A DNA stretch of 64,000 nucleotides from Smithella sp. PtaU1.Bin162 (lineage in GTDB: Bacteria; Desulfobacterota; Syntrophia; Syntrophales; Smithellaceae): contig MVRV01000029.1 in assembly GCA_002068015.1 (NCBI GenBank), forward strand, positions 114,426-178,425, given 5' to 3'. A program made the translations under genes and the position numbers. Positions 3,201 through 27,007 of this stretch are shown one piece after another. The notes under the pieces are model-generated. The model had not been told where the DNA came from, searched no databases, and saw only the letters and a list, made by a program, of their open reading frames with translations. The stretch's first letter is position 1. The number at the start of each line of letters is the position of its first letter.

Positions 3201-5621
<2,421 letters not shown>

Positions 5622-8305: not shown

Positions 8306-8324
8306 AGTATTAAGGGAAATAATA

Positions 8325-10034: not shown

Positions 10035-10697
10035 TTATTTTGTCTTTTTTCCGACAATAATTTTTCGCGGGGAGCCGGAGCTGCTTTGAATTGTATTATA
10101 TTGAAATAATTGATAATAATTATAAGGAAAGGCCGTGGCATTTTGCGGTGAAAATTCACATTTAATATCACTGCCTTTGAGCGCAATTAGAGTGCCTCCC
10201 GGGACGAGAAAATATGTCCCGTAAGACAGCATCTCCGGCAGCTTGAAAGCTGCCCGGGAAATCATAATATCGAAAAAAAATTGCCAATTTTCGGCTTGCT
10301 GCAAAATTTCTACACGGTTTGCTAAAACGAAAGCGTCCGTCAGATTCAGCAAGCGGAGAATGTGTTTCAGGAAAGAAACTTTTTTGCGGTTTATTTCCAC
10401 AAGATAAAGCTTAAGGGAAGGCAGGGCGATTTTTAAGGGAATACCGGGAAAACCAGCGCCGCACCCTATATCTATAAGACGGGCGTCTTTTTTTTCAATG
10501 AAGTGCAAAGCCGTCAGAGAATCCTGAAAATGTCTGCCCACGATTTCCCGGGCCGACTTTGCGGAAATCAAATTTATTTTTGCATTCCACCGTAATAATT
10601 CCTGCTGATAGAGGTCAAATTGCGTGAGTTGTCCGGTACTTAAATTCCAGCCCATTTTTTGTGCCGCTAATGCCAATTCTTGCAGTTGATTTTCCAT
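10035..10697 (-). CDS. rsmG: 16S rRNA (guanine527-N7)-methyltransferase RsmG/GidB
   Basis: 220 aa with the SAM-binding motif DIGCGAGFPGIPL. It sits in the conserved position upstream of parAB. Confidence 0.9.
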   Translation of the reverse strand: MENQLQELALAAQKMGWNLSTGQLTQFDLYQQELLRWNAKINLISAKSAREIVGRHFQDSLTALHFIEKKDARLIDIGCGAGFPGIPLKIALPSLKLYLVEINRKKVSFLKHILRLLNLTDAFVLANRVEILQQAENWQFFFDIMISRAAFKLPEMLSYGTYFLVPGGTLIALKGSDIKCEFSPQNATAFPYNYYQLFQYNTIQSSSGSPRKIIVGKKTK

Positions 10698-10797
10698 AAT
10701 GTATTAATAGCAAAAGGATATGGTGCAGGCAAATAAAAATTATCCGTGCATTTCTTTTCTTCCTGGAATAAAAAGAATTTTTTCGGGAGGCAGGAAA

Positions 10798-12887: not shown

Positions 12888-14090
12888 ATGGCTGGTGCAG
12901 AAATGATCGGCAAAGAAGAAATCAGGGAAGTAATGGATGTGCTCGAAACAGGCATCCTGATGAGATATGGTTTTGATAAAGAAAGAAGAGGCATCTATAA
13001 AGTAAGACAATTTGAAGAAGAATTTGCCGGATATTGCAAAGCAGGTTATGCTTTGGGAGTAACTTCCGGTTCGGCGGCACTCAAGGTAGCGCTTACGGCA
13101 CTCGATGTCGGTCCCGGAGATGAAGTACTGGTACCGTGCTTCACGTTTTTGGCGACTTATGAAGCAGTTATGGAAGTGGGTGCCATTCCCGTTATGGTTG
13201 ATATTGACGACACGCTCAACCTTGATCCGCAGGAAATTGAAAGAAAAAAAACACCATACACCAAAGCCATAATTCCTGTACACATGTGTGGTTCAGCAGC
13301 CAGAATCGATAAAATTATGGAAGTGGCCCGCAAGAACAAACTGCTGGTCCTGGAAGATAACGCCCAAGGTTGCGGAGCAAGCTTTCAGGGTAAGAAACTG
13401 GGCAGCTTCGGTGAGATGGGCTGTTTCAGTTTTGACTATGTGAAAACCGTAACCACCGGTGAAGGCGGGATGATAATCACCGATAGTCTTGATTTGTATC
13501 ACCGTGCCGAATGGTATCACGACCACGGCCACGATCATAATCCCCAAGTCAGCCGTGCTCTGGAAGGCAGAACGATCCTCGGCTTCAATTACAGGATGAA
13601 TGAATTGCAAGGGGCGTTGGGGCTCGCGCAATTGCACAAGCTTGATTATATTGTAGCTGAACAAAAGAAAAATAAACAGATTATTAAAGATGCACTGGCC
13701 CAGGTTCCGGGTGTGAAGTTCCGTACACTTCCTGATCCGGCGGGAGATTCCGCCACCTTCTTGGCTTTCAATCTGCCGGAGGAAGGCCTGGCGCAAAGGT
13801 TTCAGAATATGCTTTCGGCCGAAGGCGTGGATACCGTCTGCTACAAAAGAAATTTATGGCATTATGTTCCGAACTGGGAACATTTTCTGGCGCGTTCCAC
13901 GGCCAGTTCCAAAAAATATCCGTTTACCGATCCGACTTACAAAGGTAAAGTGCAATATACGAGAGAGAGCATTCCCCAGGCGGAAGATATTTTAGGACGG
14001 ACTCTCGTGATGGGCATATCGGTAAAAATGAGTCCGGAAAAATTGAATTCCATTAAAAAAGGAATAGAACAGGCTGCGAAAAATATGTAG
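12888..14090 (+). CDS. DegT/DnrJ/EryC1/StrS-family PLP aminotransferase
   Basis: 400 aa with GDEVLVPCFTF and the PLP-lysine context FSFDYVKTVTTGEGG. Confidence 0.85.
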   Translation: MAGAEMIGKEEIREVMDVLETGILMRYGFDKERRGIYKVRQFEEEFAGYCKAGYALGVTSGSAALKVALTALDVGPGDEVLVPCFTFLATYEAVMEVGAIPVMVDIDDTLNLDPQEIERKKTPYTKAIIPVHMCGSAARIDKIMEVARKNKLLVLEDNAQGCGASFQGKKLGSFGEMGCFSFDYVKTVTTGEGGMIITDSLDLYHRAEWYHDHGHDHNPQVSRALEGRTILGFNYRMNELQGALGLAQLHKLDYIVAEQKKNKQIIKDALAQVPGVKFRTLPDPAGDSATFLAFNLPEEGLAQRFQNMLSAEGVDTVCYKRNLWHYVPNWEHFLARSTASSKKYPFTDPTYKGKVQYTRESIPQAEDILGRTLVMGISVKMSPEKLNSIKKGIEQAAKNM

Positions 14091-14111
14091 AATCAAATAT
14101 TATACATTATA

Positions 14112-14150
14112 AAAAAGCCGCACTTTGTAAAAGAATGTGCGGCTTTTTTA
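14112..14150 (+). terminator. rho-independent terminator
   Basis: AAAAAGCCGCAC (14112-14123) pairs with GTGCGGCTTTTT (14137-14148), followed by a T-run, 20 nt after the aminotransferase stop. Confidence 0.75.
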
Positions 14151-14400
14151 TGCTTAGAACATACAACAATAATGATCGGGCGGAGAAACTGTAACAGGTG
14201 TTTTGATCTAATGATAATAAAGAACTCTTCATTATCCCATAGTTATTATTGTTAAAATTCCTTTCCTGGCCGTCATGTTCGGAAATGTGTTGTTTTTTCC
14301 CACACTTTTTGCTAAGCAATTCTTACAATTCAATAAGTGTTATCGTGCAGACACATCATAGGTATCTATTAATAGTATATTATTCGAAAGAAGAAATAAC

Positions 14401-15786
14401 TTGAAAGAGACCTTAACAAGCAACGAAATTCATGATTTGATATTTGACAGCCTGTTTAAAATGACTGTCGCTATAGTAACGGATTCGCAAGACAGAATCG
14501 CTGCTGTCAACGACCACTATGCAAAAATATTGAATCGTGAAGCAAAAGAGATAATCGGCCGTCCTGTTGTTGAAATTGTTCCCAATACATACATTCCGAT
14601 AGTCCGACAAAAAGGAAATCCGGAGGTCCGGCTTTTTACCCTGTTTAACGGCGAAAAAGTTGTGGCCAGTTACGTTCCCTTTATCAAAGATAAGAAGGTA
14701 GTCGGTGTGTTTGCTTATTCTTCCGTAAACACCACGGAATGTCTGAATACGCTCTCGACAATGGATATAATAGCTCGTTTGAACGACGAGATGAATCAAT
14801 TTAAAAATGAATTGCAGAAATTAAGGGGATCCAAATACTCTTTAAATAACATCATCGGTTCTTCCGTGAAGATGCAGGGAACAAAAGAACTGGTCAAAAA
14901 AGTAGCGCAAACAAAATCAACCGTATTAATAACCGGCGAGACGGGGACGGGCAAGGAATTGTTTGCCCACGCCATTCATCAGGCGAGCCACCGCAGCCAT
15001 CATCCCTTTATCGCCTTGAATTGTGCCGCCATTCCCCGCGAACTGATCGAATCGGAATTATTCGGTTATGAAGAAGGCGCATTCAGCGGTGCAAAAAAGG
15101 GCGGTAAGCCCGGAAAATTCGAATTGGCGCACCAGGGGACATTATTTCTCGATGAAATAGATCAATTGCCGCTGCCTCTGCAATCCAAAATATTAAGGGC
15201 TATTCAGGAAAAAGAGTTTGAAAGGGTGGGCGGTACGAAAAACATTCGTCCGGATATCCGCCTGATATGCACCTCCAACAGGAACCTGAGAGAGCTGGTG
15301 GAGAAAGGAGAATTCCGGGAGGATTTATATTATCGTATTAATGTAGTGTCTTTATATGTACCGCCGCTTCGGGAGCGGTTGGACGACATTCCCGATCTGG
15401 TCAGGCATTTAATTAATAAAATAAACAGAGAGCTGGGCCTGAACATCACCGGAATTCACAAAGGTATCCTGGAATCTTTTCAGGGGTATCACTGGCCGGG
15501 CAATGTCCGGGAACTGGAACACATTTTGGAAAGAGCCGCCAATTTTGCTCTCTCCGGAGAGCTGCAGTCTTATCATTTTGAAAAATTTGTACCAAGATTA
15601 TTTGATGGCGTAATAAAAGAATCTATTGGAAAACCAATGAATTTAAACGAGCAAAAGGTCAGAATGGAGAGGGAAGCCATTATTAACGCTTTGAATGTTA
15701 CAAAAGGTAATAAAAAAAGAGCTTCCGAGATCCTGCAAATCGACAGAAGCATCCTTTATAAGAAAATTCAACGCTATAAAATTTAG
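14401..15786 (+). CDS. sigma-54-dependent transcriptional activator with N-terminal PAS domain
   Basis: 461 aa. It has a PAS-like N-terminus, an AAA+ core ([23 protein letters not shown] as the GAFTGA-type loop, TLFLDEI) and a C-terminal Fis-type HTH ([18 protein letters not shown]). The start is TTG and is uncertain. Confidence 0.9.
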
Positions 15787-15887
15787 ACATCAGAAAATCC
15801 CTGTAACAACCGGAGAAAAATGGGCAAAGCAGGGACGGGGAACATAACCTTGATTGGTCAAAGGAAGGAATGAAAAGAGGAGCATCA

Positions 15888-16814
15888 ATGATTCATAACT
15901 TCAGGGAGTTAATGGAAGCGGCAACCAAAAGCGGACCAAAAAGAATCGTTGTGGCGGCAGCAGACGAAAACGAAACGCTCAATGCAATTGTTCAGGCATC
16001 CCGGATGAAACTCGTTTTGCCTACTCTGGTCGGCAACAAGGAATGGATCGAGATCATGCTGGACAAAAAGGACATTCCTAAAGGGAGCTTTGAGATTATT
16101 CATGAGAAGGATTCGATAAAGGCAGCCGCCGTTGCTGCACAGATAGTCCGGGAGGGTAGCGCCGATATTCTTATGAAAGGCGATGTTGTCACCTCAAAGT
16201 TCCTGCAGGCGGCTCTGGGATCGCCCGGGAACCTCAAGAGCGGTCTTTTCAGCGATGTTGAAGTCTATGAAGATGTTAGAGAAGATGCCCGTCTGGTGTT
16301 GGTAAGCGATGGTGGAGTGAACATATCCCCCGGCATTAAACAGAAGCTGGAGATCATCAGGAATGCCGTTGCCGTTGTGCATCGCCTCGGTATCAAGAGT
16401 CCGAAGGTTGCGCTTCTGTCCGGATCGGAAAAGGTACATCCTGATTTTCAATCAACCATTGACGCAGTTGCCCTGGTGAAAATGTGCCAGGATGGAGCCG
16501 TGGATGATTGCGTGGTTGATGGTCCGTTTGCTCTGGATAATGCCATAGATCTTGCTTCCGCCCGTGCGAAAGGGGTGGAATCGCCTGTGGCAGGCAGTGC
16601 AAATATTCTCATCATGCCTAATCTGGAAGCCGGCAATATCTTCTGCAAATGCCTCCAGTACTACGCAGGAAGGATGCTCATCCATGTGGGCATGGGTGCC
16701 AAAGTTCCCATCCTGATTGATTCGCGCACAGCCAAAGCGGAAGAAAAGTTGCACTCTATCGCGCTGGCCAAACTCATCTGTGAGAGTTCCCGGCAGGAAA
16801 GAGAGGCGGAATAA
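15888..16814 (+). CDS. phosphate butyryl/acetyltransferase-family phosphotransacylase (Ptb-like)
   Basis: Collinear similarity to clostridial Ptb (VVAAADE..., MKGDV, VVDGPFALDNA, MPNLEAGNI). The ATG at 15888 follows GAGGAG; 15870 is an alternative start. Confidence 0.8.
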   Translation: MIHNFRELMEAATKSGPKRIVVAAADENETLNAIVQASRMKLVLPTLVGNKEWIEIMLDKKDIPKGSFEIIHEKDSIKAAAVAAQIVREGSADILMKGDVVTSKFLQAALGSPGNLKSGLFSDVEVYEDVREDARLVLVSDGGVNISPGIKQKLEIIRNAVAVVHRLGIKSPKVALLSGSEKVHPDFQSTIDAVALVKMCQDGAVDDCVVDGPFALDNAIDLASARAKGVESPVAGSANILIMPNLEAGNIFCKCLQYYAGRMLIHVGMGAKVPILIDSRTAKAEEKLHSIALAKLICESSRQEREAE

Positions 16815-16816
16815 AC

Positions 16817-17263
16817 ATGAAGGACAAAAACTACTTTATTCGGCAGATATCTGTCTTTATAGATAATAAACCGGCCACGCTGGCCGGGATGGCGCGCCGC
16901 TTGGCGGAAAAAAACATTAATCTGCGGGCCCTCTCTCTGGCGGAAACACGCGATTTCGGGACTGCCCGCATTATTGTCGCCGATCCTGATCAATGTGTCG
17001 AAGTGTTGAAAAAAAACGGGTACCATTTGATGGAAAACGATGTACTCGCTGTAGAAGTTGCCGACCGGCCCGGTGGCATGGCGGATGTTCTTGAATGTAT
17101 AGCCCGGGAGCATGTCAGCGTGGAATATGCTTATGCCATGATAGAAAAGCGGGAGGGCAAGGCAGTCATCATATTGCGGGTTGATAATATGGAGAGGGCG
17201 ATCATGGCTTTGCGGAATAACAATGTCCGTCTCCTCACCGGGAAGGATGTGGCGTTTATATAA
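16817..17263 (+). CDS. ACT-domain (small-molecule-binding) protein
   Basis: 148 aa with two ACT-like beta-alpha-beta-beta-alpha-beta halves (ISVFIDNKPATLAGMARRLAEKNINL..., AVEVADRPGGMADVLECIAREHVSV). It starts 2 nt after the Ptb-like stop. Confidence 0.7.
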   Translation: MKDKNYFIRQISVFIDNKPATLAGMARRLAEKNINLRALSLAETRDFGTARIIVADPDQCVEVLKKNGYHLMENDVLAVEVADRPGGMADVLECIAREHVSVEYAYAMIEKREGKAVIILRVDNMERAIMALRNNNVRLLTGKDVAFI

Positions 17264-17269
17264 TTGGTT

Positions 17270-17309
17270 TGTAGTCAATTGCTACACTTTGTTGTAGTTT
17301 TTAACTACA
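17270..17309. promoter_or_regulatory. tandem 17-bp palindromes TGTAG-N7-CTACA (candidate enhancer-binding-protein sites)
   Basis: TGTAGTCAATTGCTACA (17270-17286) and TGTAGTTTTTAACTACA (17293-17309). Their centres are 23 bp apart, about 58 and 81 bp upstream of the -24 element at 17359. Confidence 0.45.
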
Positions 17310-17357
17310 TTATCCATTTTACAAATGACAAACGGTCGAATTTATAAGGTATTATTT

Positions 17358-17373
17358 TGGCATATAAAATGCG
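17358..17373 (+). promoter_or_regulatory. sigma-54 (-24/-12) promoter
   Basis: TGGCATATAAAATGCG has GG-N10-GC with exact canonical spacing, against the consensus TGGCAC-N5-TTGCW. It lies 42 nt upstream of the BKACE ATG. Confidence 0.6.
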
Positions 17374-17414
17374 TACAGGGTTTAAGTTAAAAAAATGAAA
17401 AGGATAGAATAATT

Positions 17415-18350
17415 ATGGATAACAAAATTATTATTACAGCGGCAATCACCGGTTCTGTTCATATCCCCACCATGAGCGACTATCTTCCCATAACACCGGA
17501 TCAGATTGTAGAAGATGCTGTTGTGGCACATGAGGCAGGTGCTGCTATTGCCCACATTCATGTCAGGAATCCTGAAAACGGCCTGCCTACATCCAGTCCT
17601 GAACTTTTTATGGAAGTATGCAGCAGGATCAAAGCCAGATGCAATATTGTTCTGCTTCCCACCACCGGCGGCGGCATGAACCAGACCACGGAAGAAAAAC
17701 TGATCCCGATCAAACAATTGAAGCCGGAGATGTGCTCTTTTGATCCGGCGCCTTTTAATTTCGGCATATTTCAACTTGCCGGTCGTTTTGAAAAATATAA
17801 ATACGATTGGGAAAAAGATTACCTGGAGATGTGTAAAAATGTTACTTTCCGGCCGACTTTCAGTGATGACATGATCTACGCCAAGACCTTTCTGGAAATT
17901 GAGACGAAGCCGGAGCTGGAAATTTATGAACTGGGACATATCTCTTATGTCAAATGGCTTTTAGAAGAAAATCTTTTAAAAACCCCCGTTCATCTCCAGT
18001 TTGTTTTTGGTCCCATGGTCGGCTGGATGACTCCTTCCGTAAAACATCTGGTACTGATCCATGACGAAGCCATAGAAGTGCTTGGTGAAAATAATTTTAC
18101 CTGGTCGGTGGCAGCAGGCGGCCGTTTCCAGATACCTATAACAACAACTGCTATGGCTATGGGCGCTAAAAATGTCAGAGTTGGTCTGGAAGATTCCATC
18201 TATGCAGGAAAGAGTATTTTGGCCAAAACCAGCGCAGAACAGGTCAATATAGTAAAAAGAATTGCCAAAGAATTTAGTCTGGAACCGGCCAGCTCCGATG
18301 AAGCCAGACAGATTTTAGGATTAAAAGGGCTGGACAAGGTTAATTTTTAA
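17415..18350 (+). CDS. BKACE-family beta-keto acid cleavage enzyme (3-keto-5-aminohexanoate cleavage enzyme family, DUF849), paralog 1
   Basis: 311 aa with IIITAAITGSVHIPTMS, AAIAHIHVRNPENG and RVGLEDS motifs characteristic of the Kce/BKACE TIM-barrel Zn enzymes. Confidence 0.85.
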   Translation: MDNKIIITAAITGSVHIPTMSDYLPITPDQIVEDAVVAHEAGAAIAHIHVRNPENGLPTSSPELFMEVCSRIKARCNIVLLPTTGGGMNQTTEEKLIPIKQLKPEMCSFDPAPFNFGIFQLAGRFEKYKYDWEKDYLEMCKNVTFRPTFSDDMIYAKTFLEIETKPELEIYELGHISYVKWLLEENLLKTPVHLQFVFGPMVGWMTPSVKHLVLIHDEAIEVLGENNFTWSVAAGGRFQIPITTTAMAMGAKNVRVGLEDSIYAGKSILAKTSAEQVNIVKRIAKEFSLEPASSDEARQILGLKGLDKVNF

Positions 18351-18423
18351 CAGTGCCCGAATAACGACATTGACGGGAATCAATGAATTCCAGAAGTTTT
18401 AAGTAATAAAAATTGGGGGCATC

Positions 18424-20004
18424 ATGCACTACGGAGAAGATTTCTACAACGCAGCGGATTGGTTAATCGACCGTAACGTTCGCGAAGGCCGCGGCGATAA
18501 GATAGCCGTCTATTCGCAGCACAAAAATTTAACGTATAAAGAACTCCAGACCATGATTAACAAAACCGGTAATTTACTCAAAAAAATGGGAATCGGGATT
18601 GATGATCGTGTCATGATGCTTGTACTGGATATACCTATGTTTCTTGGTGTATTTTACGGCGCAATCAAAATCGGAGCTAATCCGATTCCCATCAATACTA
18701 TGATGATGCCGGACGATTATAAATATTATCTTAACGACAGCCGCGCCAAAGTTCTTTTTATCTCGGACGCGCTCGTTCCGCAGATAGAAGCAATCAAGGA
18801 AGACCTGCTCTATCTCAGAGATGTAGTAGTTATTAATGAAGTTACAGGATTGGATCTGCCTTACAATCATCTTTATAATATGGCCTCGGAAAACCTGGAA
18901 TGCGCCTATACGACAGCTGATGATAACTGTTTCTGGCTGTACAGTTCAGGATCAACAGGAGCGCCTAAAGGTGTAATCCATGCGCATAAAGACATGGAAA
19001 CAGTGGCCGTAAACTATGCCCGGGGCGTGCTGGGTATGAAAGAAAGCGATATAACCCTGTCGGCAGCCCGTCTGTTCTTTGCCTATGGTCTCGGTAATGC
19101 CGGATATTTCGCATTTTCCGTCGGCGGTTCTACAATTCTTCATTCAGCTGCGCCTAAGCCGGAAGGAATGTATGATCTGTTTAAAAAATTCAAACCAACT
19201 GTATATTTCGGTGTACCGACCCTTTATGGTGCAATGCTGGCTCTTCAGGAACAGAGAGACAAAGAAGCAGGCCTCAAGAATCCGGGACCATCGGATGCGC
19301 ATGCTTGCGGCTCCCTGCGCCTTTGCGTATCAGCCGGCGAAGCTCTGCCTGCTGAACTCTACAACAGATGGAAAGCCCGTTATGGTATAGATATTTTAGA
19401 CGGTATCGGATCAACGGAACTGCTGCACATATATATTTCCAACCGTCCTGATGATATCAGACCGGGGGCAAGCGGAAAAGCAACTCCGCATTACGAACTT
19501 AAGATCGTGAATGATGAAGGTAAGGAAGCGGAAGTCGACGAGCCGGGTACAATGATGGTAAGATGCGACAGCGCCGCCATGCTGTACTGGAAAAAACGTG
19601 CAAAAACACGCGCCACAATGCAAGGCGAATGGCTCAATACAGGCGATAAATACTACCGGGACAAGGACGGTTACTATTTTTGTGCCGGCCGCGGCGACGA
19701 TATGCTGAAAGTCGGCGGTATCTGGGTGTCTCCGGTGGAAGTAGAGGCATGCTTAATTGAGCATCCGGCAGTACTGGAAGCAGCCGTAACAGGTAAAGAA
19801 GACGAAGAAAAACTCGTCAAGCCCAAGGCATGGGTTGTACTGAAACAGGGGCAAAAGCCGTCGGAGGCACTGGCCAAAGAATTACAGCGGTGGTGTCTTG
19901 ATAAAATGGCCAAGTACAAATATCCGCGCTGGATTGAGTTTGTTGAAGCACTTCCCAAAACACCGACGGGAAAGATTCAGCGCTTTAAACTGCGCGCCAA
20001 GTAA
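18424..20004 (+). CDS. AMP-forming acyl-CoA ligase, benzoate-CoA-ligase-like subfamily
   Basis: 526 aa with the AMP-binding P-loop YSSGSTGAPKG, the TGD motif and a C-terminal PKTPTGKIQR. Confidence 0.85.
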   Translation: MHYGEDFYNAADWLIDRNVREGRGDKIAVYSQHKNLTYKELQTMINKTGNLLKKMGIGIDDRVMMLVLDIPMFLGVFYGAIKIGANPIPINTMMMPDDYKYYLNDSRAKVLFISDALVPQIEAIKEDLLYLRDVVVINEVTGLDLPYNHLYNMASENLECAYTTADDNCFWLYSSGSTGAPKGVIHAHKDMETVAVNYARGVLGMKESDITLSAARLFFAYGLGNAGYFAFSVGGSTILHSAAPKPEGMYDLFKKFKPTVYFGVPTLYGAMLALQEQRDKEAGLKNPGPSDAHACGSLRLCVSAGEALPAELYNRWKARYGIDILDGIGSTELLHIYISNRPDDIRPGASGKATPHYELKIVNDEGKEAEVDEPGTMMVRCDSAAMLYWKKRAKTRATMQGEWLNTGDKYYRDKDGYYFCAGRGDDMLKVGGIWVSPVEVEACLIEHPAVLEAAVTGKEDEEKLVKPKAWVVLKQGQKPSEALAKELQRWCLDKMAKYKYPRWIEFVEALPKTPTGKIQRFKLRAK

Positions 20005-20378
20005 ATTATAAGCCCGTTTTTTAGCACTGAATATACATGAAAAGTTGCAGTCAAGATGAACCGCTTTGTGCATAAGCGCAATAAAAAAGGGTGTCATTAA
20101 TAATAATGAGAGGACATTTTCTACCGGTTTAGATTTCGATTGTTGTTTATGTCTGTATCCGGTAGAGTGCCTTGTGGGCCGGCGGCTTGTTTTTTACTGA
20201 TGATACCCCCGCAGCTCATCCGGTTAGAGTATCCTTATTGTTCGCCTTCCGGGCGAGAGTTGCATGAACAGTGAAAAATTTCATGCAGCTTAAGCAGGAG
20301 GGGCAAGAGGATGTATTTTAGGCGTTTGAACGGTAAAACGCTTAAAACAATTTATTTCAGACAAGGAGGAAATCATTT

Positions 20379-21431
20379 ATGAAGAAAAAGCTGTTTGTTG
20401 GCGTAGCTGTAATGGCGCTTCTGATTGCCTTGGTGTCGTCGGCCATGGCACAGGACAAAGTCATCAAGTGGAAAGTACAGGGGTTTGTTCCGGCGGGAAT
20501 GCTTTTCCATGAGACACTGGTACGTACTGCTAATTTAGTCAAAGAAGTGACCGGGGGAAGGCTGATCTGGGAAGTATATCCGGCAGGCGCCCTGGTACCT
20601 CCGTTTGAAGGGCTCAAGGCCGTAAGCGACGGCGTATATGACGTCAATTACAGTTATACCGGGCAATGGGTGGGTAAAATCCCAGTCGCACCGCTCTTTA
20701 CCGCAGCTCCCGGCGGTCTGAATGTCGTGGATATGCAGATGTGGCTGGAATATGGCGGTGGAAAACAACTTTTCCAGGAAATGTATGATAAATACGGCTA
20801 CAACGTCAAAGTGTTTCTGGGTGCGCCGATCTCCATGGAAATTTTTCTCTGGTCCAAGAAACCTCTGCGTACACTTAAAGATTTTAAAGGACTCAAACTG
20901 CGCATGATGCCGGTTATGGGCGATGTTTTGACAAAGAACGGCCTTCCCGTTGTGTTCATGCCTGCCGGCGAAATCATTCCTAACCTGCAGCGCGGTGTTA
21001 TCGATGCCGCCGAATACAGTATTCCCGCCTTCGATAAAAGCCTGGGAATCTGGCAGGTCTGCAAATACCTTCAAGTTCCGGGGATTCACCAGCCCGCCTC
21101 CCAGACGGAATTTATCGTGAACAAAAAATCCTATGAAGCACTGCCGGCTGATCTGAAAGTTTTGTTGGATGCAGCCATATGGAAATCCCGTTTAGAAGAC
21201 TGGCTCTGGATGGAGGCTAAAAATCTGGAAGCAATGGACTTCTTCAAAGAAAAGGGTATCACTATAGTGCAGATGGATCCGGAAACCGTCAGGACCTTTA
21301 CCAAGTGGGCCCAGGATTATCTGGATGAACGAGGCGCCAAGGACGAATTTTTCGGTAAGGTCTGGAATTCGCAAAAAGCTTTCGGCAAGAAATGGTATCC
21401 TTACTCCAAAATGTTTACACTGCCCCATTGA
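20379..21431 (+). CDS. TRAP transporter substrate-binding protein (DctP family)
   Basis: 350 aa with a signal peptide (…ALVSSAMA/QD) and DctP-type fold motifs. It is followed by the Q and M subunits. Confidence 0.85.
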   Translation: MKKKLFVGVAVMALLIALVSSAMAQDKVIKWKVQGFVPAGMLFHETLVRTANLVKEVTGGRLIWEVYPAGALVPPFEGLKAVSDGVYDVNYSYTGQWVGKIPVAPLFTAAPGGLNVVDMQMWLEYGGGKQLFQEMYDKYGYNVKVFLGAPISMEIFLWSKKPLRTLKDFKGLKLRMMPVMGDVLTKNGLPVVFMPAGEIIPNLQRGVIDAAEYSIPAFDKSLGIWQVCKYLQVPGIHQPASQTEFIVNKKSYEALPADLKVLLDAAIWKSRLEDWLWMEAKNLEAMDFFKEKGITIVQMDPETVRTFTKWAQDYLDERGAKDEFFGKVWNSQKAFGKKWYPYSKMFTLPH

Positions 21432-21539
21432 TTAATGGAATAACATTATAATATCCGTCTGTAGGGCTTTCCGGCTTATCAACCGGGAAGCCCTGCAGGG
21501 CAGTTTCTCCGCAGAGGGCGGAGTGAGAAAGGAATTGTT

Positions 21540-22052
21540 ATGGAAAAGGTTTTAGGTGTCATTGACGCAATCAGCGAATGGACGGGGAAACTCAGCAGTT
21601 TTCTGATCGCCATCCTGACGCTGGTTATTTGTTATGATATTATAGTACGTTATGTCTTTAGCTCCCCTACCGCCTGGGGCTATGATGTCACCTATATGAT
21701 TTACGGTGTGTACGCCATGCTCGGTATGGCTTACTGTGACAAAATGAAGGGACATGTGCGGATGGATTTAATTTACAGCAACCTGTCGGAGCGGGGCAAA
21801 GCATGGATGGACGCCATCTGCTATCTGATTTTATTCTTTCCCGCACTGATCGTTATAACATACAAGTGCGGCGACCATTCCATATGGGCGCTGCTTGCGG
21901 GTGAGCGGTCATCCGGTAGTGTCTGGCGCCCGTATTTAGGTCCTTTTAAACTGCTTATCACTTTCGGATTTCTGTTGCTCATTTTGCAGGGGGTTGCGGG
22001 TTTTCTGCGTTCGCTCGCTACAGCCCTGAAAGAAGGAAGGAGGATCTCATGA
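21540..22052 (+). CDS. TRAP transporter small permease (DctQ)
   Basis: 170 aa with four hydrophobic helices. It overlaps dctM by 4 nt (ATGA). Confidence 0.8.
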   Translation: MEKVLGVIDAISEWTGKLSSFLIAILTLVICYDIIVRYVFSSPTAWGYDVTYMIYGVYAMLGMAYCDKMKGHVRMDLIYSNLSERGKAWMDAICYLILFFPALIVITYKCGDHSIWALLAGERSSGSVWRPYLGPFKLLITFGFLLLILQGVAGFLRSLATALKEGRRIS

Positions 22053-23371
22053 GTCCTGAACTTACTACAATATTAATGTTTCTGAGTTTGCTGGTTCTGC
22101 TCACGGGATTTCCCCTGGCCTTTGGTATTGCTTCCATGGGAATTTTATTCGGTTATCTGACCGGGGGCAATGCTTTTCTTTATATGATTCCGCAGCGCGT
22201 TATTAACGGTACCCTGTCCGAATATATCCTGGCAGCGGTCCCGCTGTTCATATTTATGGGAGTCAGCATCAGCTCCTCAGGTGTGGCGGAACGATCTTTT
22301 ATAGTGCTCCAGCGATGGATGAGCAGCATCAGGGGAGGATTGGCCATCGCCACAATTACTCTGGCCATTGTTTTTGCCGCCTGTGTCGGTGTTGTCGGTG
22401 CCTCGGTAACGGCCATCGGTATTCTGGCCATTCCGGCCATGCAGAAAGCACGCTACGCCGATTCACTGGCCACAGGAGTGGTCTGTGCGGGCGGTACACT
22501 GGGAATACTGATTCCGCCCAGTATCATGCTTATCCTTTATGCCCCTATTGCCGGAGTGTCGGTAGTGGACATGTATGCGGGAGCGGTTGTCCCCGGTTTG
22601 CTGCTGGGCATACTTTACATAGTTTATGTTATTTTGCGGACGAAGTTCAATCCGGAGATGGGTCCCAGCCTGCCTAAGGAAATGGGTCTGAAATTTTTCT
22701 CGCGGGAGTCCCTCGTACAGGGATTTAAATATCTGGCACCGCCGGTTTTGCTGGTGATATTGGTCATGGGTTCTCTTTTTCTGGGCATTGCCTCCCCTAC
22801 GGAGGCAGGCGCGGTAGGTTCCGTCGGAGCCATTGCCCTGGGATTCATTTACCGTACCATCACCTGGCAGTCCTTCAAGAATGACTGCTATCTGACTTTG
22901 CGCATTACCGCGATGATCATTTTCATCGCCATTGCCGCGAGTCTCTTTACGGGAGCATTTTTGAACGCCGGTTGCGGTCAGGTCATCACGGATGTTTTGC
23001 TGGGTCTGGGCCTGGGGCGCTGGGGTATATTCATTGCGGTGCTGATCATCGTGCTGATACTGGGGTGCTTTATTGACTGGATCGGCATACTTTTAATCAT
23101 GGTGCCGATTTTCGCACCTATCCTGACCACCCTGAAGTTTGATCCGCTTTGGGTAGGTTTGGTGGTTTGTACAAGCTTGCAGGTATCGTTCCTGTCGCCG
23201 CCTTTTGCCTACTCCATTTTTTATGCCAAGGCCATTACTCCGAAGACACCTCTGACGGATATTTATCGCGGAGTTATGCCGTTTGTCGCCATTCAACTGC
23301 TGGTTACTATGCTTTGCATTATTTTTCCGGCTTTGTGTCTCTGGTTGCCGAATCTTTTGTCGCAGGGCTGA
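22049..23371 (+). CDS. TRAP transporter large permease (DctM)
   Basis: 440 aa polytopic membrane protein with typical DctM sequence. Confidence 0.9.
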   Translation: MSPELTTILMFLSLLVLLTGFPLAFGIASMGILFGYLTGGNAFLYMIPQRVINGTLSEYILAAVPLFIFMGVSISSSGVAERSFIVLQRWMSSIRGGLAIATITLAIVFAACVGVVGASVTAIGILAIPAMQKARYADSLATGVVCAGGTLGILIPPSIMLILYAPIAGVSVVDMYAGAVVPGLLLGILYIVYVILRTKFNPEMGPSLPKEMGLKFFSRESLVQGFKYLAPPVLLVILVMGSLFLGIASPTEAGAVGSVGAIALGFIYRTITWQSFKNDCYLTLRITAMIIFIAIAASLFTGAFLNAGCGQVITDVLLGLGLGRWGIFIAVLIIVLILGCFIDWIGILLIMVPIFAPILTTLKFDPLWVGLVVCTSLQVSFLSPPFAYSIFYAKAITPKTPLTDIYRGVMPFVAIQLLVTMLCIIFPALCLWLPNLLSQG

Positions 23372-23386
23372 AGATAAACGATTTCC

Positions 23387-23426
23387 GTTCAGGCAGAGGT
23401 GGAGAATTTCTCGCCGCTGCCTGAAC
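23387..23426 (+). other. intercistronic stem-loop after dctM
   Basis: 10-bp perfect stem GTTCAGGCAG/CTGCCTGAAC with a 20-nt loop and no T-run. It is a possible mRNA-stability or processing element rather than a full terminator. Confidence 0.4.
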
Positions 23427-23482
23427 CGGCCTGACGGCACGTGGCGTTACTGCAATACGTTAATTTTAGAAAGGAGGAATAA

Positions 23483-24448
23483 ATGAGCATATTAATTACC
23501 GGAGGCACGGGATTTATTGGTGCCCATGTCGCCAGGCTGGAACTGGCAGCAGGAGAAAAAGATGTTTTTGTTTTTGATATTAATCCGTCCGCGAAGCTTT
23601 TGGATGACGTGGCGGACAAAGTTTCCATAGTCCGGGGTGATCTCGGTAATTTCAGCCATGTCATGAATATTGTAAAAACGGCCCGGCCGAAAAAAATCTT
23701 TCATATCGGCGGAATGCTTTCGGTTCCGTCGGATGCCGATCCGTTTGCTTCCTTCCGCGCCAACGCGCTGGGCACCTATCATATTCTGGAAGCGGCCAGA
23801 TTACTGGAAGTGCCGCAGGTAATCTTTACCAGTACCCTGGCTACTTATGGGCTGGATTTGGAAGAAGGTGCTGCCATCAGTGATTACTCCTTGCAGCGGC
23901 CGCAGCTTTTCTATGGAGTTACCAAGGTATTCGGCGAGCTGCTGGGCCAGTTTTATCGCAGAAAATATGGGCTGGATTTTCGCGGTGTGCGTTATCCTTC
24001 CATTGTGGGCCCCGGAGTCAAAACGCCCGGTGTCGTTCAATATACGAGCTGGATGATCGAAGAAAGCATCAAAGGTAATCCTTTTATTGTCAAGGTGCCA
24101 CCCGAAACCAGAACCCCCGTCATGTATTTCAAGGATGCCGCCCTGGCCGTGATCAATCTGGCTAATGCTCCCCGGGAAAATATTAAGATGGTTAATTATC
24201 TGATAGCCGGTGTTAAACCCATCGCAACGGCTGATGAGCTTGCTGATATCGTCAGAAAGAAAGTTCCGGGTGCCCGGATTGAGTTCCAAACTGATCCGGA
24301 ATTGCAGAAGATATTAAGCAAACTTTTGCATCCGATCGATGACAGTACCGCTCACAATGAATGGGGTTGGAAAGCAAAGTACGATCAGGCAATGATAGTG
24401 GATGACTTTATTGCGGAGATGAAAAATTTCCCGCAGAGATATGCATAA
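23483..24448 (+). CDS. extended-SDR NAD-dependent epimerase/dehydrogenase (L-threonine-3-dehydrogenase-like subgroup)
   Basis: 321 aa with the Rossmann motif ILITGGTGFIGAH and a YxxxK region (FYGVTKVFGE). Confidence 0.8.
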   Translation: MSILITGGTGFIGAHVARLELAAGEKDVFVFDINPSAKLLDDVADKVSIVRGDLGNFSHVMNIVKTARPKKIFHIGGMLSVPSDADPFASFRANALGTYHILEAARLLEVPQVIFTSTLATYGLDLEEGAAISDYSLQRPQLFYGVTKVFGELLGQFYRRKYGLDFRGVRYPSIVGPGVKTPGVVQYTSWMIEESIKGNPFIVKVPPETRTPVMYFKDAALAVINLANAPRENIKMVNYLIAGVKPIATADELADIVRKKVPGARIEFQTDPELQKILSKLLHPIDDSTAHNEWGWKAKYDQAMIVDDFIAEMKNFPQRYA

Positions 24449-24505
24449 ATTGCCGGGCTTGTTGCAACCGGCCAGGCGAAAGTAGTTGCAGGAAAGGAGT
24501 ATCAT

Positions 24506-25474
24506 ATGAAAGCAGCTGATATAAAGAAAATTTGTGCTTTGGGAGGAGGAGGCGTTATCGGCTCCAGCTGGTGTACTAATTTTTTATGGAAGGGCTATGC
24601 CGTAACGGTTTACGATGTAAATGATGAAGCTCTGGCGCTGGCCAAAAAACGCATAACCGCCAATCTGGAATATCTGGCGGAAAAAAAGATTATCACGCAA
24701 GAAGCATCCCGGCAGGCCCTGGCTCAGGCATCTTATACAACCGATCAACGGAAGGCCTTGCAGGATGTTCAGTATGTACAGGAATCAGGTCCGGAAAACT
24801 ATGATGTCAAAAAAGCAGTTCTGGCGATCCTGGACAAATACGGCAGTCCGGAAACCATCTTTGCCAGCAGCACTTCCGGGTTGCTGATTACGGAAATCGC
24901 CAAAGGTTCGCAACATCCGGAGCGCTGCATCGGGGCGCACCCTTATAATCCTCCTCATTTAATCCCGCTTGTGGAAATTACCAAAGGCGAGCAGACCAGC
25001 GATGCCGTCGTCAAAGTTGCCAATGATTTCTACCGGCTGCTGGGAAAAGAACCGATTGTCCTGCAAAAAGAGGCACTCGGTTTTATATCCAACCGGTTGC
25101 AGATTGCTCTGTACAGAGAAGCGGTAAACCTCGTGCTGACGGGAGTGTGTTCGGTTGAGGATGTGGACAAGGCCGTTTGTTACGGACCCGGGTTGCGGTA
25201 TGCCTTGCTGGGCCCGAATTTGATTTTTCACTTGGGTGGAGGTCAGGTCGGACTCAAAGGAGTTTTGGAACATATTGGTCCCTCGATGGAACTGTGGTTG
25301 AAGGATATGGCTGTTTGGAAGGAATTTCCCGCCGGCAGCAAAGATATACTGCAGAAGGGAGTGCTGCAGGAGATGCAGGGACGCAAACAGGAAGAGGGAA
25401 AAACAACAGAAGAAATTTCACGCTGGCGTGATGAAAAACTTCTGAATCTGCTGAAATTATTAAATCGGATTTAG
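24506..25474 (+). CDS. 3-hydroxyacyl-CoA-dehydrogenase-fold enzyme of the L-carnitine-dehydrogenase (LcdH) type
   Basis: 322 aa with GGGVIGSSW, QESGPE, SSTSGL, HPYNPPHLIPLVE, GFISNRLQ and GPGLRYALLGP motifs, which match the free-acid LcdH-like subgroup as I recall it. Confidence 0.75.
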   Translation: MKAADIKKICALGGGGVIGSSWCTNFLWKGYAVTVYDVNDEALALAKKRITANLEYLAEKKIITQEASRQALAQASYTTDQRKALQDVQYVQESGPENYDVKKAVLAILDKYGSPETIFASSTSGLLITEIAKGSQHPERCIGAHPYNPPHLIPLVEITKGEQTSDAVVKVANDFYRLLGKEPIVLQKEALGFISNRLQIALYREAVNLVLTGVCSVEDVDKAVCYGPGLRYALLGPNLIFHLGGGQVGLKGVLEHIGPSMELWLKDMAVWKEFPAGSKDILQKGVLQEMQGRKQEEGKTTEEISRWRDEKLLNLLKLLNRI

Positions 25475-25613
25475 AAATTTTTCCCACAGGAATTGTCGGC
25501 GAACCCAAGCAACGGAAAGTCGTTGTTTGGGTTCAGTACAAGAGGCTGGAAAATTGCGTTGTTTTCAGTCGATGTGAATTTTTGTATAAAAAATACAGAT
25601 GGGAGTATAATTT

Positions 25614-26537
25614 ATGAAGGAAAAAACAATTGTTACGGCAGCTATTACAGGAAGCATCCATACGCCGACCATGTCCAAATTTTTACCGATTACCCCTCAG
25701 CAAATAGCCGATGATGCCGTTCTGGCCTTTGAGGCGGGAGCAGCGGTCTGTCATATTCATGTTCGCGATCCCAAAACAGGGCAGCCGGTCTCCGATATGA
25801 ATCTTTTTAAGGAAACGATCTCCAGCATAAAAAAAAGATGTAATATGATCGTTTGCATCACAACCGGCGGCGGCCTGGGTATGACATCCGAACAGCGTCT
25901 TATACCTGTTTCCACATTCAGTCCCGAGCTGGCTTCTTTCAATGCCGGTTCGGTAAATTTCGCCCTCTTCCATGCTTTGAGTAAATTTAAGAATTTTCAG
26001 CATGAATGGGAAAGCAAGTACCTGGCCTTTACGGAAGATTTTACTCTTTCCAATACCTTTAAATCCATGAAGGAGTTTGCCGAAACGTTCAATAAAAATA
26101 AAACCAAACCGGAATTCGAGGTTTATGATGCCGGTATGCTTAACAATATTGCCTTTCTCATTGAACAGGGTTACGTAAAAAAACCGGTTTACATTCAGTT
26201 TGTGATGGGTGTGCTGGGCGGAATTACCCCGAGTTCCGCAAACCTGCTGTTCCTGGTGGATTATGCTCAAAAACTGATTGGTGATTTTGTTTTTTCCGTC
26301 TGTGTGGCGGGTCGTGCACAATTCCCCCTATGTACCCAGTCGCTTTTGATTGGCGGTAACGTAAGGGTTGGGCTGGAGGATAACCTTTATCTGAACAAAG
26401 GAATCATGGCGAAGAGCAGCGCCGAGCAGGTGGCTAAAATTGTCCGTATCGCCAAGGAATTGGGCATTGAGCCCGCGACCCCGGATGAAGCGAGAAAAAT
26501 CCTGGGGCTGAAAGGACTGGAGAAGGTTAAATTTTAA
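25614..26537 (+). CDS. BKACE-family beta-keto acid cleavage enzyme, paralog 2
   Basis: 307 aa with IVTAAITGSIHTPTMS, AAVCHIHVRDPKTG and RVGLEDN motifs. It is clearly paralogous to 17415-18350. Confidence 0.85.
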   Translation: MKEKTIVTAAITGSIHTPTMSKFLPITPQQIADDAVLAFEAGAAVCHIHVRDPKTGQPVSDMNLFKETISSIKKRCNMIVCITTGGGLGMTSEQRLIPVSTFSPELASFNAGSVNFALFHALSKFKNFQHEWESKYLAFTEDFTLSNTFKSMKEFAETFNKNKTKPEFEVYDAGMLNNIAFLIEQGYVKKPVYIQFVMGVLGGITPSSANLLFLVDYAQKLIGDFVFSVCVAGRAQFPLCTQSLLIGGNVRVGLEDNLYLNKGIMAKSSAEQVAKIVRIAKELGIEPATPDEARKILGLKGLEKVKF

Positions 26538-26569
26538 AAACAAGACATCTATAAAGCTTATACTAAAAA

Positions 26570-26602
26570 GCCGTGCATAGTTTAACGTATGCGCGGCTTT
26601 TT
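26570..26602 (+). terminator. rho-independent terminator closing the BKACE/TRAP operon
   Basis: GCCGTGCATA (26570-26579) pairs with TATGCGCGGC (26588-26597) with one G-U wobble, followed by TTTTT. Confidence 0.7.
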
Positions 26603-26838: not shown

Positions 26839-26907
26839 AAATCAATGACACTCGCTGAAAACGAGTGCAATGAAGTTTGCAGAGGAAGTGGAATTGATCC
26901 CGAAAGC
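26839..26907 (+). repeat. 69-bp dispersed repeat, copy A
   Basis: It aligns without gaps to 40556-40624. By my hand count 59 of 69 positions are identical. It contains the hairpin CACTCG-CTGAAAA-CGAGTG. Confidence 0.7.
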
Positions 26908-27007
26908 GAGCGAGTTTGGGCGAAGCTATTCGGGATCCCGGGGTCATATTTCCCGCAGTTTGCTGCGGGGTCGTTCATTTGATAAAAAATCAGGGTATTC
27001 AATATTT

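Follow-up and report, generated by a model that had tools for sequence, protein, structure and literature searches.

β-Keto acid cleavage enzymes (BKACEs) transfer the acyl group of a β-keto acid to CoA from acetyl-CoA and release acetoacetate, and the scheme in which a dehydrogenase acts before a BKACE is already known from the breakdown of lysine, carnitine, 2-deoxyribonate, and phloroglucinol. In the lower phloroglucinol pathway of Clostridium scatologenes, the two steps are catalyzed by the (S)-3-hydroxy-5-oxohexanoate dehydrogenase TfD and the triacetate acetoacetate-lyase TAL (PMC10470551), and an oxidative 2-deoxyribonate pathway has been described for Pseudomonas simiae and Paraburkholderia (PMC6365646). 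BKACE15 of Paracoccus denitrificans (Protein Data Bank [PDB] entries 8RIO, 8RIP, and 9HNF) prefers neutral C5-C6 β-keto acids, and catalytic roles have been assigned to its residues Glu171 and Arg254 (PMC11961710). A different way of handling a β-keto acid is found in Aromatoleum aromaticum, where a benzoylacetate-CoA ligase (Bal) and a thiolase convert 3-oxo-3-phenylpropanoate to benzoyl-CoA (PMC4729919). Here we describe an 11-gene block from Smithella sp. PtaU1.Bin162 located at positions 14401 to 26602 of a 64-kb stretch of contig MVRV01000029.1, referred to below as the window. The block encodes a sigma-54 activator, a Ptb-like phosphotransacylase, an ACT-domain protein, BKACE-1, an AMP-forming CoA ligase, the DctP, DctQ, and DctM subunits of a tripartite ATP-independent periplasmic (TRAP) transporter, an extended short-chain dehydrogenase/reductase (SDR), a dehydrogenase of the 3-hydroxyacyl-CoA dehydrogenase type (HAD), and BKACE-2. 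On balance, we favor the view that it is an operon for imported β-hydroxy monocarboxylic acids, which would be broken down without prior CoA ligation, and that it is a composite of two older modules.

Both BKACEs lie far above the PF05853 cut-off of 24.8 bits (scores in Table 1) and cover model positions 1 to 274 of 274, and they are 48% identical to each other. In an alignment of the two paralogues with 14 relatives, His47, His49, Glu169, Arg255, Glu259, and Asp260 are invariant; residues were matched to the Zn histidines His46 and His48 of the lysine pathway enzyme Kce and to Glu171 and Arg254 of BKACE15. The retention of the Zn ligands and of the catalytic Glu and Arg argues that both proteins are competent BKACEs rather than inactive family members. 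In Kce, Glu14 binds the 5-amino group of the substrate (PMC10470551). An ungapped alignment, for which the Kce N-terminal sequence was verified against PDB entry 2Y7D, places Val15 of BKACE-1 and Ile15 of BKACE-2 at this position, and the scores of the two proteins with the Kce equivalog model NF052387 (207.6 and 274.2 bits, respectively) fall short of its cut-off of 382. Judged by these features, neither BKACE is a Kce. The replacement of Glu14 removes the ground from the suggestion, made in an initial annotation of this DNA from its sequence alone, that the substrate may be amino or ammonio substituted. The best NCBIfam model for both proteins is NF053538 (3,5-dioxohexanoate:acetyl-CoA acetone transferase); with its cut-off at 430, BKACE-2 comes close (412.6 bits) and BKACE-1 reaches 339.4 bits. 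The closest solved structures are 3LOT, 3E02, 3E49, and BKACE15 (8RIO), with scores of 213 to 336 bits. BKACE-1-type proteins differ from BKACE-2 in three motifs (SFDPAPFNFG in place of SFNAGSVNFA, GPMVGWM in place of G-VLGGI, and YELGH in place of YDAGM); neither the BKACE-2 clade nor the four closest solved homologues aligned show this set of substitutions. From its relatives and neighbors, BKACE-2 would appear to be a neutral aliphatic β-keto acid:acetyl-CoA enzyme.

The two dehydrogenases would supply the free β-keto acids. The closest solved relatives of the SDR are L-threonine 3-dehydrogenases, a likeness that had been recognized in the initial annotation, and its GxxGxxG and YxxxK motifs are intact; it also matches D-erythronate dehydrogenase weakly, with 108 bits. 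We infer that it is a 3-hydroxy-acid dehydrogenase. For the HAD, the closest solved relative is λ-crystallin (L-gulonate 3-dehydrogenase, a free-acid enzyme). Compared with Hbd of Clostridium acetobutylicum, it keeps the residues Ser124, His145, and Asn196, and two CoA-contact positions are changed (Lys56 to Ile62 and Asn221 to Gly229); the residue numbers of the Hbd sequence used here match all those given in PMC10470551. The free-acid enzyme TfD likewise lacks Hbd-type CoA-contact residues (PMC10470551), and the HAD of the window is probably of the same free-acid type. It scores below the L-carnitine dehydrogenase equivalogs (NF005471, 199 bits versus 414; NF005716, 207.3 bits versus 592), and with these missed cut-offs and the replaced Glu14, the earlier judgment that the block is unlike the textbook lysine and carnitine clusters holds. 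The three TRAP subunits are encoded by consecutive genes, and the best PDB matches of DctP are lactate-, pyruvate-, and keto-acid-binding TRAP solute-binding proteins. The conserved catalytic residues of the BKACEs and the HAD and the threonine-dehydrogenase-like nature of the SDR thus speak for the general logic first proposed for this block, namely, import, oxidation of a β-hydroxyl group, and cleavage by a BKACE with acetyl-CoA.

Comparison with other genomes indicates that most of these genes belong together (loci of relatives from genome and metagenome contigs are given L-numbers below). A genome scan with BKACE-2 as a single-protein query gave no match; when it was repeated with an alignment, this profile-guided scan of one genome per species yielded 442 confirmed BKACE-2 relatives. 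The best 80 of the 442 are 71 to 82% identical to BKACE-2 and come nearly all from Syntrophales, Syntrophaceae, or other Desulfobacterota metagenome-assembled genomes (MAGs), often in several copies per genome. Open reading frames (ORFs) were called in the loci and clustered, and cluster representatives were annotated, which revealed four recurring contexts. In the first, a borderline GntP-family permease, a HAD that is 58 to 68% identical to that of the window, sometimes a CoA-transferase, and a second HAD-like gene accompany the BKACE. In the second, the BKACE follows an AtoE-type short-chain fatty-acid transporter. The third comprises an acyl-CoA dehydrogenase, an AbfD-like protein, the BKACE, and a protein resembling old yellow enzyme and dienoyl-CoA reductase, and the fourth comprises a histidine kinase, an activator, the BKACE, an acyl-CoA dehydrogenase, MaoC, an SCP-x thiolase, DUF35, and a CoA-transferase. 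The loci L003 and L013 combine an activator (71 to 72% identity), a GntP-like permease, a HAD-like gene, BKACE-2 (80 to 81%), the SDR (79%), and the HAD (68%).

A search with the TRAP binding protein, which is an independent starting point from the BKACE-2 search, led to the same set of functions. Loci L103 to L105 encode DctPQM (74, 57, and 72% identity), a BKACE that is 64% identical to BKACE-2, a HAD-family protein (36%), and AtoE; L103 and L104 continue with an extended SDR (64 to 65%) and a ligase resembling acetyl-CoA synthetase (ACS), and the L105 contig ends within AtoE. Loci L106 and L107 encode DctPQM (DctP, 67%), a HAD-family protein (34%), and an extended SDR (70%). DctP orthologues with 67 to 74% identity thus have a HAD-family gene and an extended SDR as neighbors in all five loci, three of which also encode a BKACE. 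The HAD type of the window (58 to 68%) accompanies BKACE-2 in Syntrophales loci and not in the TRAP loci. Taken together, TRAP transporter, SDR, HAD-fold dehydrogenase, and BKACE-2 recur with one another in overlapping combinations. The block had initially been read as two dehydrogenase-BKACE pairs, and this symmetry did not stand: SDR orthologues (64 to 79% identity) accompany the orthologous TRAP transporter, HAD-family genes, and usually BKACE-2, whereas BKACE-1 is of a different lineage and has different partners.

Several further features of these loci are of note. Multiple copies are found, for instance, on OY970063.1 (L022, L032, and L051) and CAVYEB010000002.1 (L045, L054, and L067), and some genomes have at least three paralogues; many of the MAGs with the BKACE-2 clade originate from fens and peat. 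A tannase/feruloyl-esterase-family gene (PF07519) lies directly upstream of a permease-HAD-BKACE unit in L053 (positions 5492 to 7225) and L067, both from the Syntrophales/Syntrophobacteraceae, and in L066 a classical SDR gene (positions 6239 to 7036) takes this place; the tannase-family neighbors may connect these loci with the breakdown of polyphenols or esters. In different lineages (L034, L067, L084, L086, and L103), BKACE genes have an AMP-forming CoA ligase gene as their immediate neighbor, and the ligases come from at least four unrelated families; this recurring adjacency suggests a general functional coupling.

The nearest relatives of BKACE-1, with 83 to 89% identity, are found in Desulfobacula toluolica Tol2, Desulfotignum, and other Desulfobacteraceae. 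All seven loci in this range (L086 to L092) share the order AsnC regulator, BKACE, AMP-forming ligase, DctP, and DctQ, with DctM next wherever the contig continues (L092 ends within DctM). In six of the seven (L086 to L089, L091, and L092), genes for a 540-amino-acid enzyme of the 4-methylideneimidazole-5-one (MIO) family and a class-III aminotransferase precede the AsnC gene; the L090 contig begins at an aminotransferase-sized gene and does not cover the MIO position. The D. toluolica cluster occupies positions 6262 to 16002 of L086, which corresponds to about 2.119 to 2.129 Mb of FO203503.1. The best model for the MIO enzyme is the D-β-phenylalanine-forming phenylalanine aminomutase model TIGR04475 (664 bits versus a cut-off of 800), other models score far lower (histidine ammonia-lyase, 487 bits; tyrosine aminomutase, 445 bits), and its best PDB match is the phenylalanine aminomutase AdmH. 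The aminotransferase best matches 6K8H, glutamate-1-semialdehyde aminomutases, and the β-transaminases 2YKU and 4AO9. A β-transaminase acting on β-phenylalanine produces 3-oxo-3-phenylpropanoate, which is a β-keto acid. This gene context suggests that enzymes of the BKACE-1 lineage may convert an aryl β-keto acid to benzoyl-CoA and acetoacetate. A second, independent link of this lineage to aromatic acids is seen in the window itself, where BKACE-1 is followed after 73 nt by the gene for a benzoate-CoA-ligase-family enzyme.

We therefore put forward, as a tentative proposal that we consider possible rather than probable, that the BKACE-1 lineage represents a benzoylacetate-type enzyme forming benzoyl-CoA and acetoacetate without ATP, which would be an undescribed anaerobic entry to the benzoyl-CoA pathway. 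In the Desulfobacteraceae, an MIO aminomutase would convert phenylalanine to β-phenylalanine, the β-transaminase would produce 3-oxo-3-phenylpropanoate, and the BKACE would yield benzoyl-CoA; in Smithella, the aryl β-keto acid would instead come from 3-hydroxy-3-aryl-propanoates oxidized by the SDR and the HAD. Full-text literature searches returned no title or abstract describing a BKACE that makes benzoyl-CoA. The context argument for BKACE-1 concerns only the group with at least 83% identity. If the proposal is correct, the central anaerobic aromatic pathway would gain a new entry that needs no ligase, and a function could be given to a Desulfobacteraceae cluster that is conserved and occurs in the cultured and genetically characterized strain D. 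toluolica Tol2.

The sigma-54 promoter of the block has the correct GG-N10-GC spacing and lies 43 nt upstream of the BKACE-1 ATG. A scan of the block for the consensus TGGCAC-N5-TTGCW with one mismatch found no match, and the promoter was recognized by reading the sequence and by its conservation; the element alone is no better than chance (0.82 expected). The tandem TGTAG-N7-CTACA palindromes upstream of it are the only two occurrences in the 64-kb window, with 0.01 expected by chance. Palindromes and -24/-12 elements recur at equal spacing upstream of the operons adjoining activator orthologues in L003, L013, and L027, which are Syntrophales MAG loci whose activators are 70 to 72% identical to that of the window; the common architecture is a tandem palindrome followed, after about 65 to 68 nt, by TTGGCA-N7-TGC. 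They are also present upstream of BKACE-1 in L001 and L095 (the L095 activator is 99% identical to that of the window, and the L001 contig starts at Ptb), and the TTGGCA and TGC columns are invariant in all five aligned promoter regions. The activator of L004 is 72% identical over its full length without gaps, the N-terminal sensor region included, and the cluster of the 72%-identical Syntrophales activator also carries the SDR, the HAD, and BKACE-2. We interpret the palindromes as probable binding sites of the activator, that is, upstream activating sequences (UAS). Since palindromes and promoter are conserved together with activator orthologues, control of the operon by its adjacent activator is well supported computationally. 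The block thus combines an activator with AAA+ and helix-turn-helix domains, a promoter with -24 GG and -12 GC, and predicted upstream sites; rpoN is located outside the window. The sigma-54 promoter proposed in the initial annotation is therefore real, though noncanonical, and the description of the block as a sigma-54-controlled island applies from BKACE-1 onward and not to Ptb and ACT, which lie between the activator gene and the palindromes, upstream of the promoter. Terminator prediction on the plus strand gave none downstream of ACT or in the interval from the activator gene to Ptb, and Ptb and ACT are probably cotranscribed with the activator gene. As separate observations, an additional inverted repeat (GGCTCAATG...CATTGAGCC) is conserved in L003, L013, and L027, where it separates the palindromes from the -24/-12 element (in L003, for example, around positions 7470 to 7505); it is absent from the window and may be a site for integration host factor or a second regulator. 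In addition, L095 has a second extended SDR copy (positions 1250 to 2212; 74% identity) just upstream of the activator gene.

The composite nature of the operon is supported by comparative genomics. Conserved synteny, proposed in the initial annotation as a check on its reading, extends over the whole 11-gene block only in very close relatives, namely, the near-identical Smithella contigs L001, L002, and L095, whereas the submodules are widely kept. BKACE-1 is 89% identical between Smithella and the Desulfobacteraceae, which belong to different orders, and such identity suggests horizontal transfer of this gene. In L001, the spacer between the ligase gene and dctP (positions 4306 to 4702) contains a second TGTAG-N7-CTACA pair and a degenerate -24/-12 element, CGGCAT-N5-ATGCG; this segment has been lost or has decayed in the window and in L095. 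The second UAS pair ahead of dctP is most simply read as a sign of the insertion of BKACE-1 and the ligase gene. The corresponding 374-nt spacer of the window is highly conserved toward its 3' end, and positions 20100 to 20378 within it fold better than shuffled sequences (z -3.6); Rfam gave no match anywhere in the window, this spacer included. An ancestral unit would accordingly have consisted of the activator, the palindromes and promoter, the transporter, the SDR and HAD, and BKACE-2; BKACE-1 and the ligase would have entered downstream of a duplicated promoter region, and the Ptb-ACT pair would have been placed in the stretch that separates the palindromes from the activator gene. The order of these insertions is our interpretation of the arrangement.

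The assignment of the ligase as benzoate-CoA-ligase-like is confirmed at the subfamily level by TIGR02262 (635.2 bits versus a cut-off of 375.25), and substrate-specific equivalogs are not reached (HbdA, 373 versus 1,000). Its best PDB matches are the anthranilate-CoA ligase 4WV3, with 499 bits, and benzoate-CoA ligases, with 414 bits. When metagenomes were scanned with the ligase, one locus proved near-identical and three others about 60% identical; in two of these three (L096 and L098) the neighboring genes showed no synteny, so that the scan carries no information on the role of the ligase. The enzyme might activate the corresponding aromatic acid or, by analogy with Bal in Aromatoleum, benzoylacetate. 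Ptb is a member of PF01515 only; its best NCBIfam model is phosphate butyryltransferase NF004472, with 291 bits against a cut-off of 399. An orphan phosphotransacylase had been noted before, and indeed no acyl kinase is present among the annotated ORFs of the window, which comprise all but a few on its left side. L001, L002, and L095 retain Ptb and ACT as a pair. More speculatively, Ptb may pass the acyl-CoA product on to an acyl phosphate, from which ATP could be gained via a kinase encoded elsewhere.

Put together, the operon would work as follows. The TRAP system would import a β-hydroxy monocarboxylate, and the NAD-dependent SDR and HAD, possibly with opposite stereospecificities, would oxidize the 3-hydroxyl to a 3-oxo group. 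A BKACE would then convert the β-keto acid and acetyl-CoA to an acyl-CoA and acetoacetate, BKACE-2 acting on neutral aliphatic and BKACE-1 on aryl β-keto acids. The ancestral unit probably handles neutral short-chain acids, such as C5-C6 3-hydroxyalkanoates or acids of the 3-hydroxy-5-oxo- or 3,5-dihydroxyhexanoate type, and BKACE-1 with the aryl-CoA ligase would have widened its range to aromatic β-hydroxy acids. The acetoacetate released would have to be reactivated; in sister clusters, ACS-like ligases or CoA-transferases are encoded for this purpose, which is not obviously the case in the window. A link to the C6 intermediate of Smithella propionate dismutation was considered and found no support, as that pathway is formulated with CoA esters and the block is an inducible import operon. 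Overall, the logic of import, oxidation, and cleavage in the initial annotation is retained, and its paired symmetry and its amine substrate are not.

A number of points weigh against this interpretation. All substrate specificities are drawn from homology and gene context. The ligands of the nearest solved relatives of DctP are small acids with a 2-hydroxy or 2-oxo group rather than aromatic ones, and 3-hydroxybutyrate alone was set aside as a substrate, since a BKACE acting on acetoacetate would only regenerate what it started from and its presence would stay unexplained. None of the proposed steps requires the ligase, and Ptb stays below the equivalog cut-offs with no partner kinase in the window. 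With regard to BKACE-1, the ligase and TRAP transporter of the Desulfobacteraceae cluster are not orthologous to those of the window (ligase, 26% identity; DctP, no match; DctM, 28 to 32%). BKACE-1-type homologues with 68 to 76% identity are found in unrelated contexts, so that the subfamily is not uniformly linked to aromatic compounds, and the MIO enzyme of D. toluolica has reportedly been assigned as a phenylalanine ammonia-lyase that supplies a route via cinnamate.

Among other explanations, it seems unlikely that the block serves just one substrate, a C6 compound of the polyketide type that arises when polyphenols are broken down (for example, 3-hydroxy-5-oxohexanoate or 3,5-dihydroxyhexanoate of the lower phloroglucinol pathway). 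Such a compound would be imported and oxidized to 3,5-dioxohexanoate or 5-hydroxy-3-oxohexanoate, which the BKACEs would cleave to acetoacetate and acetoacetyl-CoA or 3-hydroxybutyryl-CoA, with the two BKACEs and two dehydrogenases serving successive oxidation states. NF053538 as the best NCBIfam model for both BKACEs agrees with this idea, although both scores stay below its cut-off, and so do the combination of a free-acid HAD and a BKACE in TfD and TAL, the tannase-family gene directly upstream of permease-HAD-BKACE in L053 and L067, the classical SDR in L066, and the fen and peat origin of many BKACE-2-clade MAGs. However, the block contains neither a phloroglucinol reductase nor a cyclase-family dihydrophloroglucinol cyclohydrolase, the C. 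scatologenes TAL is described as a close Kce homologue with Trp at the Glu14 position, where the window enzymes have Ile or Val, and both the aryl-CoA ligase and the close tie of BKACE-1 to the MIO/β-transaminase clusters would be left unexplained. The same tie to enzymes of aromatic amino acids speaks against purely aliphatic 3-hydroxyalkanoates, for example, both enantiomers of the polyhydroxyalkanoate monomers 3-hydroxyvalerate and 3-hydroxyhexanoate, as the only substrates, a reading in which chain-length preference would be the sole difference between the two BKACEs and the ligase would serve to activate the acetoacetate set free. The C5-C6 β-keto acids accepted by BKACE15 and the AtoE, ACS-like ligase, CoA-transferase, and β-oxidation genes that adjoin BKACE-2 relatives would suit it, and so would the recurrence of AMP-forming ligases beside BKACE genes. 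The membership of these ligases in at least four unrelated families argues, however, against one shared substrate such as acetoacetate, and with 635 bits the window ligase clearly belongs to the benzoate-CoA ligase family, not to the acetoacetyl-CoA synthetase type. We regard this reading as rather unlikely.

A 2-deoxy sugar acid is a very unlikely substrate. By analogy with 2-deoxyribonate in P. simiae, it would be oxidized to the 3-keto acid and cleaved by a BKACE to glyceryl-CoA and acetoacetate; the known pathway does combine a dehydrogenase, a BKACE, and a transporter, the closest solved relative of the HAD is L-gulonate 3-dehydrogenase, the SDR matches D-erythronate dehydrogenase weakly, and the transporter of the sister clusters is GntP-like. 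Nevertheless, neither a lactonase nor a glycerate kinase is encoded in the block, the description of the P. simiae dehydrogenase goes no further than the SDR superfamily, the source organism degrades fatty acids or aromatic acids in syntrophy, and the gene context of BKACE-1 would find no explanation. Lysine fermentation with a Kce or carnitine breakdown with LcdH and dehydrocarnitine cleavage, in a nonstandard arrangement, would draw on the same protein families, and we disfavor it as the most improbable of all: the equivalog scores and the Glu14 position given above argue against the lysine and carnitine readings, lysine aminomutases, 3,5-diaminohexanoate dehydrogenase, and 3-aminobutyryl-CoA lyase are not present, and the transporter is a carboxylate TRAP system. 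The import of β-hydroxy monocarboxylic acids for oxidation and cleavage by two different BKACEs thus remains the interpretation that we prefer.

The eleven genes form a closed unit on the plus strand, for which gene identities were assigned by ORF calling with Pfam and NCBIfam scans (Table 1). Every gene that the initial annotation had located was recovered at its coordinates with a Pfam match, the terminator it had placed near position 26570 proved to be a strong hairpin, and the eight genes from BKACE-1 to BKACE-2 encode the proteins OPY88701 to OPY88708 according to an exact-sequence look-up.

Table 1. Features of the Smithella block and its boundaries (positions in the 64-kb window)
Feature	Position	Strand	Basis or remarks
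Intrinsic terminator, left boundary	14110..14152	+	-20.8 kcal/mol, z -6.3, then T-run; closes upstream DegT/Fe-alcohol dehydrogenase genes
Sigma-54 activator, TTG start	14401..15786	+	PAS_4, Sigma54_activat (238 bits), HTH_8 (Fis-type helix-turn-helix)
Ptb-like phosphotransacylase	15870..16814	+	PTA_PTB PF01515, 156 bits
ACT-domain-pair protein	16817..17263	+	ACT_8 PF19571, 87 bits; start 3 nt past Ptb stop
Tandem palindromes, predicted UAS	17270-17286 and 17293-17309	+	TGTAG-N7-CTACA
Sigma-54 -24/-12 promoter	17358..17372	+	TGGCAT-N5-ATGCG; 65 nt past proximal palindrome
BKACE-1	17415..18350	+	PF05853, 286.7 bits
AMP-forming aryl-CoA ligase	18424..20004	+	AMP-binding; TIGR02262
374-nt spacer, ligase to dctP	20005..20378	+	Structured leader; apparently what is left of a second promoter dependent on the activator
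DctP, TRAP solute-binding protein	20379..21431	+	PF03480; TakP/lactate-binding subgroup
DctQ, TRAP small membrane subunit	21540..22052	+	PF04290
DctM, TRAP large membrane subunit	22049..23371	+	PF06808, 261 bits
Extended SDR, L-threonine-3-dehydrogenase-like	23483..24448	+	Epimerase family; GxxGxxG and YxxxK
HAD, putative free-acid type (λ-crystallin/LcdH/TfD-like)	24506..25474	+	3HCDH_N and 3HCDH
BKACE-2	25614..26537	+	PF05853, 336.9 bits
Intrinsic terminator, right boundary	26565..26602	+	-22.2 kcal/mol, z -6.0, then T-run

The DNA on either side of the block has features of its own. Directly upstream are genes for an iron-containing alcohol dehydrogenase (positions 11661 to 12818) and a DegT aminotransferase (12888 to 14090). 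Positions 1 to 10700 resemble a chromosome origin region, with gyrB (3201 to 5603) and parB/parA-like genes (8325 to 9983) on the minus strand and a change of sign of the GC skew at about 8 to 10 kb. Just downstream of the block, PAS-rich signaling proteins are encoded at an unusual density (positions 26870 to 29725 and 34987 to 46319); they are a 951-amino-acid hybrid histidine kinase, a 706-amino-acid protein that public annotation names as a diguanylate cyclase, a response regulator containing PAS domains, a 751-amino-acid phytochrome-like protein, and a 1,411-amino-acid hybrid kinase with repeated PAS-family matches. Farther downstream, a gene of the AbfD/HpaB family (4-hydroxybutyryl-CoA dehydratase type) lies on the minus strand (48204 to 49655), between genes for a response-regulator-type sigma-54 activator (46865 to 48214) and a histidine kinase (49754 to 51298, minus strand), the three spanning positions 46865 to 51298; AbfD-like genes are also frequent neighbors of BKACE-2 paralogues in other Syntrophales.

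The activation of β-keto acids by a BKACE without ATP would be valuable for energy-limited syntrophs such as Smithella, and the 442 relatives suggest that BKACE chemistry is much wider in the Syntrophales than the lysine, carnitine, deoxyribonate, and phloroglucinol cases indicate. If the tentative proposal made above for the BKACE-1 lineage holds, the expansion of BKACEs in this order would, more broadly, point to CoA activation without ATP as a means by which syntrophs save energy.

Compared with the systems described previously, the block falls outside the lysine, carnitine, and phloroglucinol pathways in the family scores, residues, and genes examined, and the deoxyribonate cluster was compared by gene content only. 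The closest parallel is TfD and TAL of C. scatologenes, where, within a catabolic cluster of an anaerobe, a free-acid enzyme of the HAD fold without CoA contacts feeds a BKACE that lacks the amine-binding Glu and gives acetoacetate and an acyl-CoA. No classical-SDR reductase or cyclase-family gene of the phloroglucinol cluster is present in positions 14401 to 26602 or the flanks; the BKACEs of the window are longer (about 310 amino acids), are of the 3LOT/8RIO type, and have Ile or Val instead of Trp at the Glu14 position, and, in addition, the block has sigma-54 control and encodes a TRAP importer, a second BKACE, an extended SDR, and an aryl-CoA ligase. The 2-deoxyribonate pathway similarly directs a transporter, an SDR dehydrogenase, and a BKACE at a free β-hydroxy acid and requires acetoacetate reactivation, but its major facilitator superfamily transporter, lactonase, and glycerate kinase and its aerobic proteobacterial host are its own, whereas two BKACEs are encoded in the window, and its two dehydrogenases are of other types. 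The carnitine (LcdH) and lysine (Kdd/Kce) pathways share the two-step scheme with a HAD fold and a BKACE; their equivalog cut-offs, amine-binding residue, and accessory genes are missing from the window, which has a TRAP transporter instead. With BKACE15 and the uncharacterized proteins 3LOT, 3E02, and 3E49, the window BKACEs have the equivalents of Glu171 and Arg254 in common, whereas the SFDPAPFNFG, GPMVGWM, and YELGH motifs are found in BKACE-1 alone. The Bal route of A. aromaticum also involves an AMP-forming ligase; it spends ATP and proceeds by thiolysis of benzoylacetyl-CoA, whereas the route proposed for the window would use a BKACE and acetyl-CoA and release acetoacetate. What is new in the Smithella block is therefore not the two-step scheme itself but sigma-54 and activator control with a defined site, TRAP import, the pair of an extended SDR and a HAD, and two BKACEs of different evolutionary origin.

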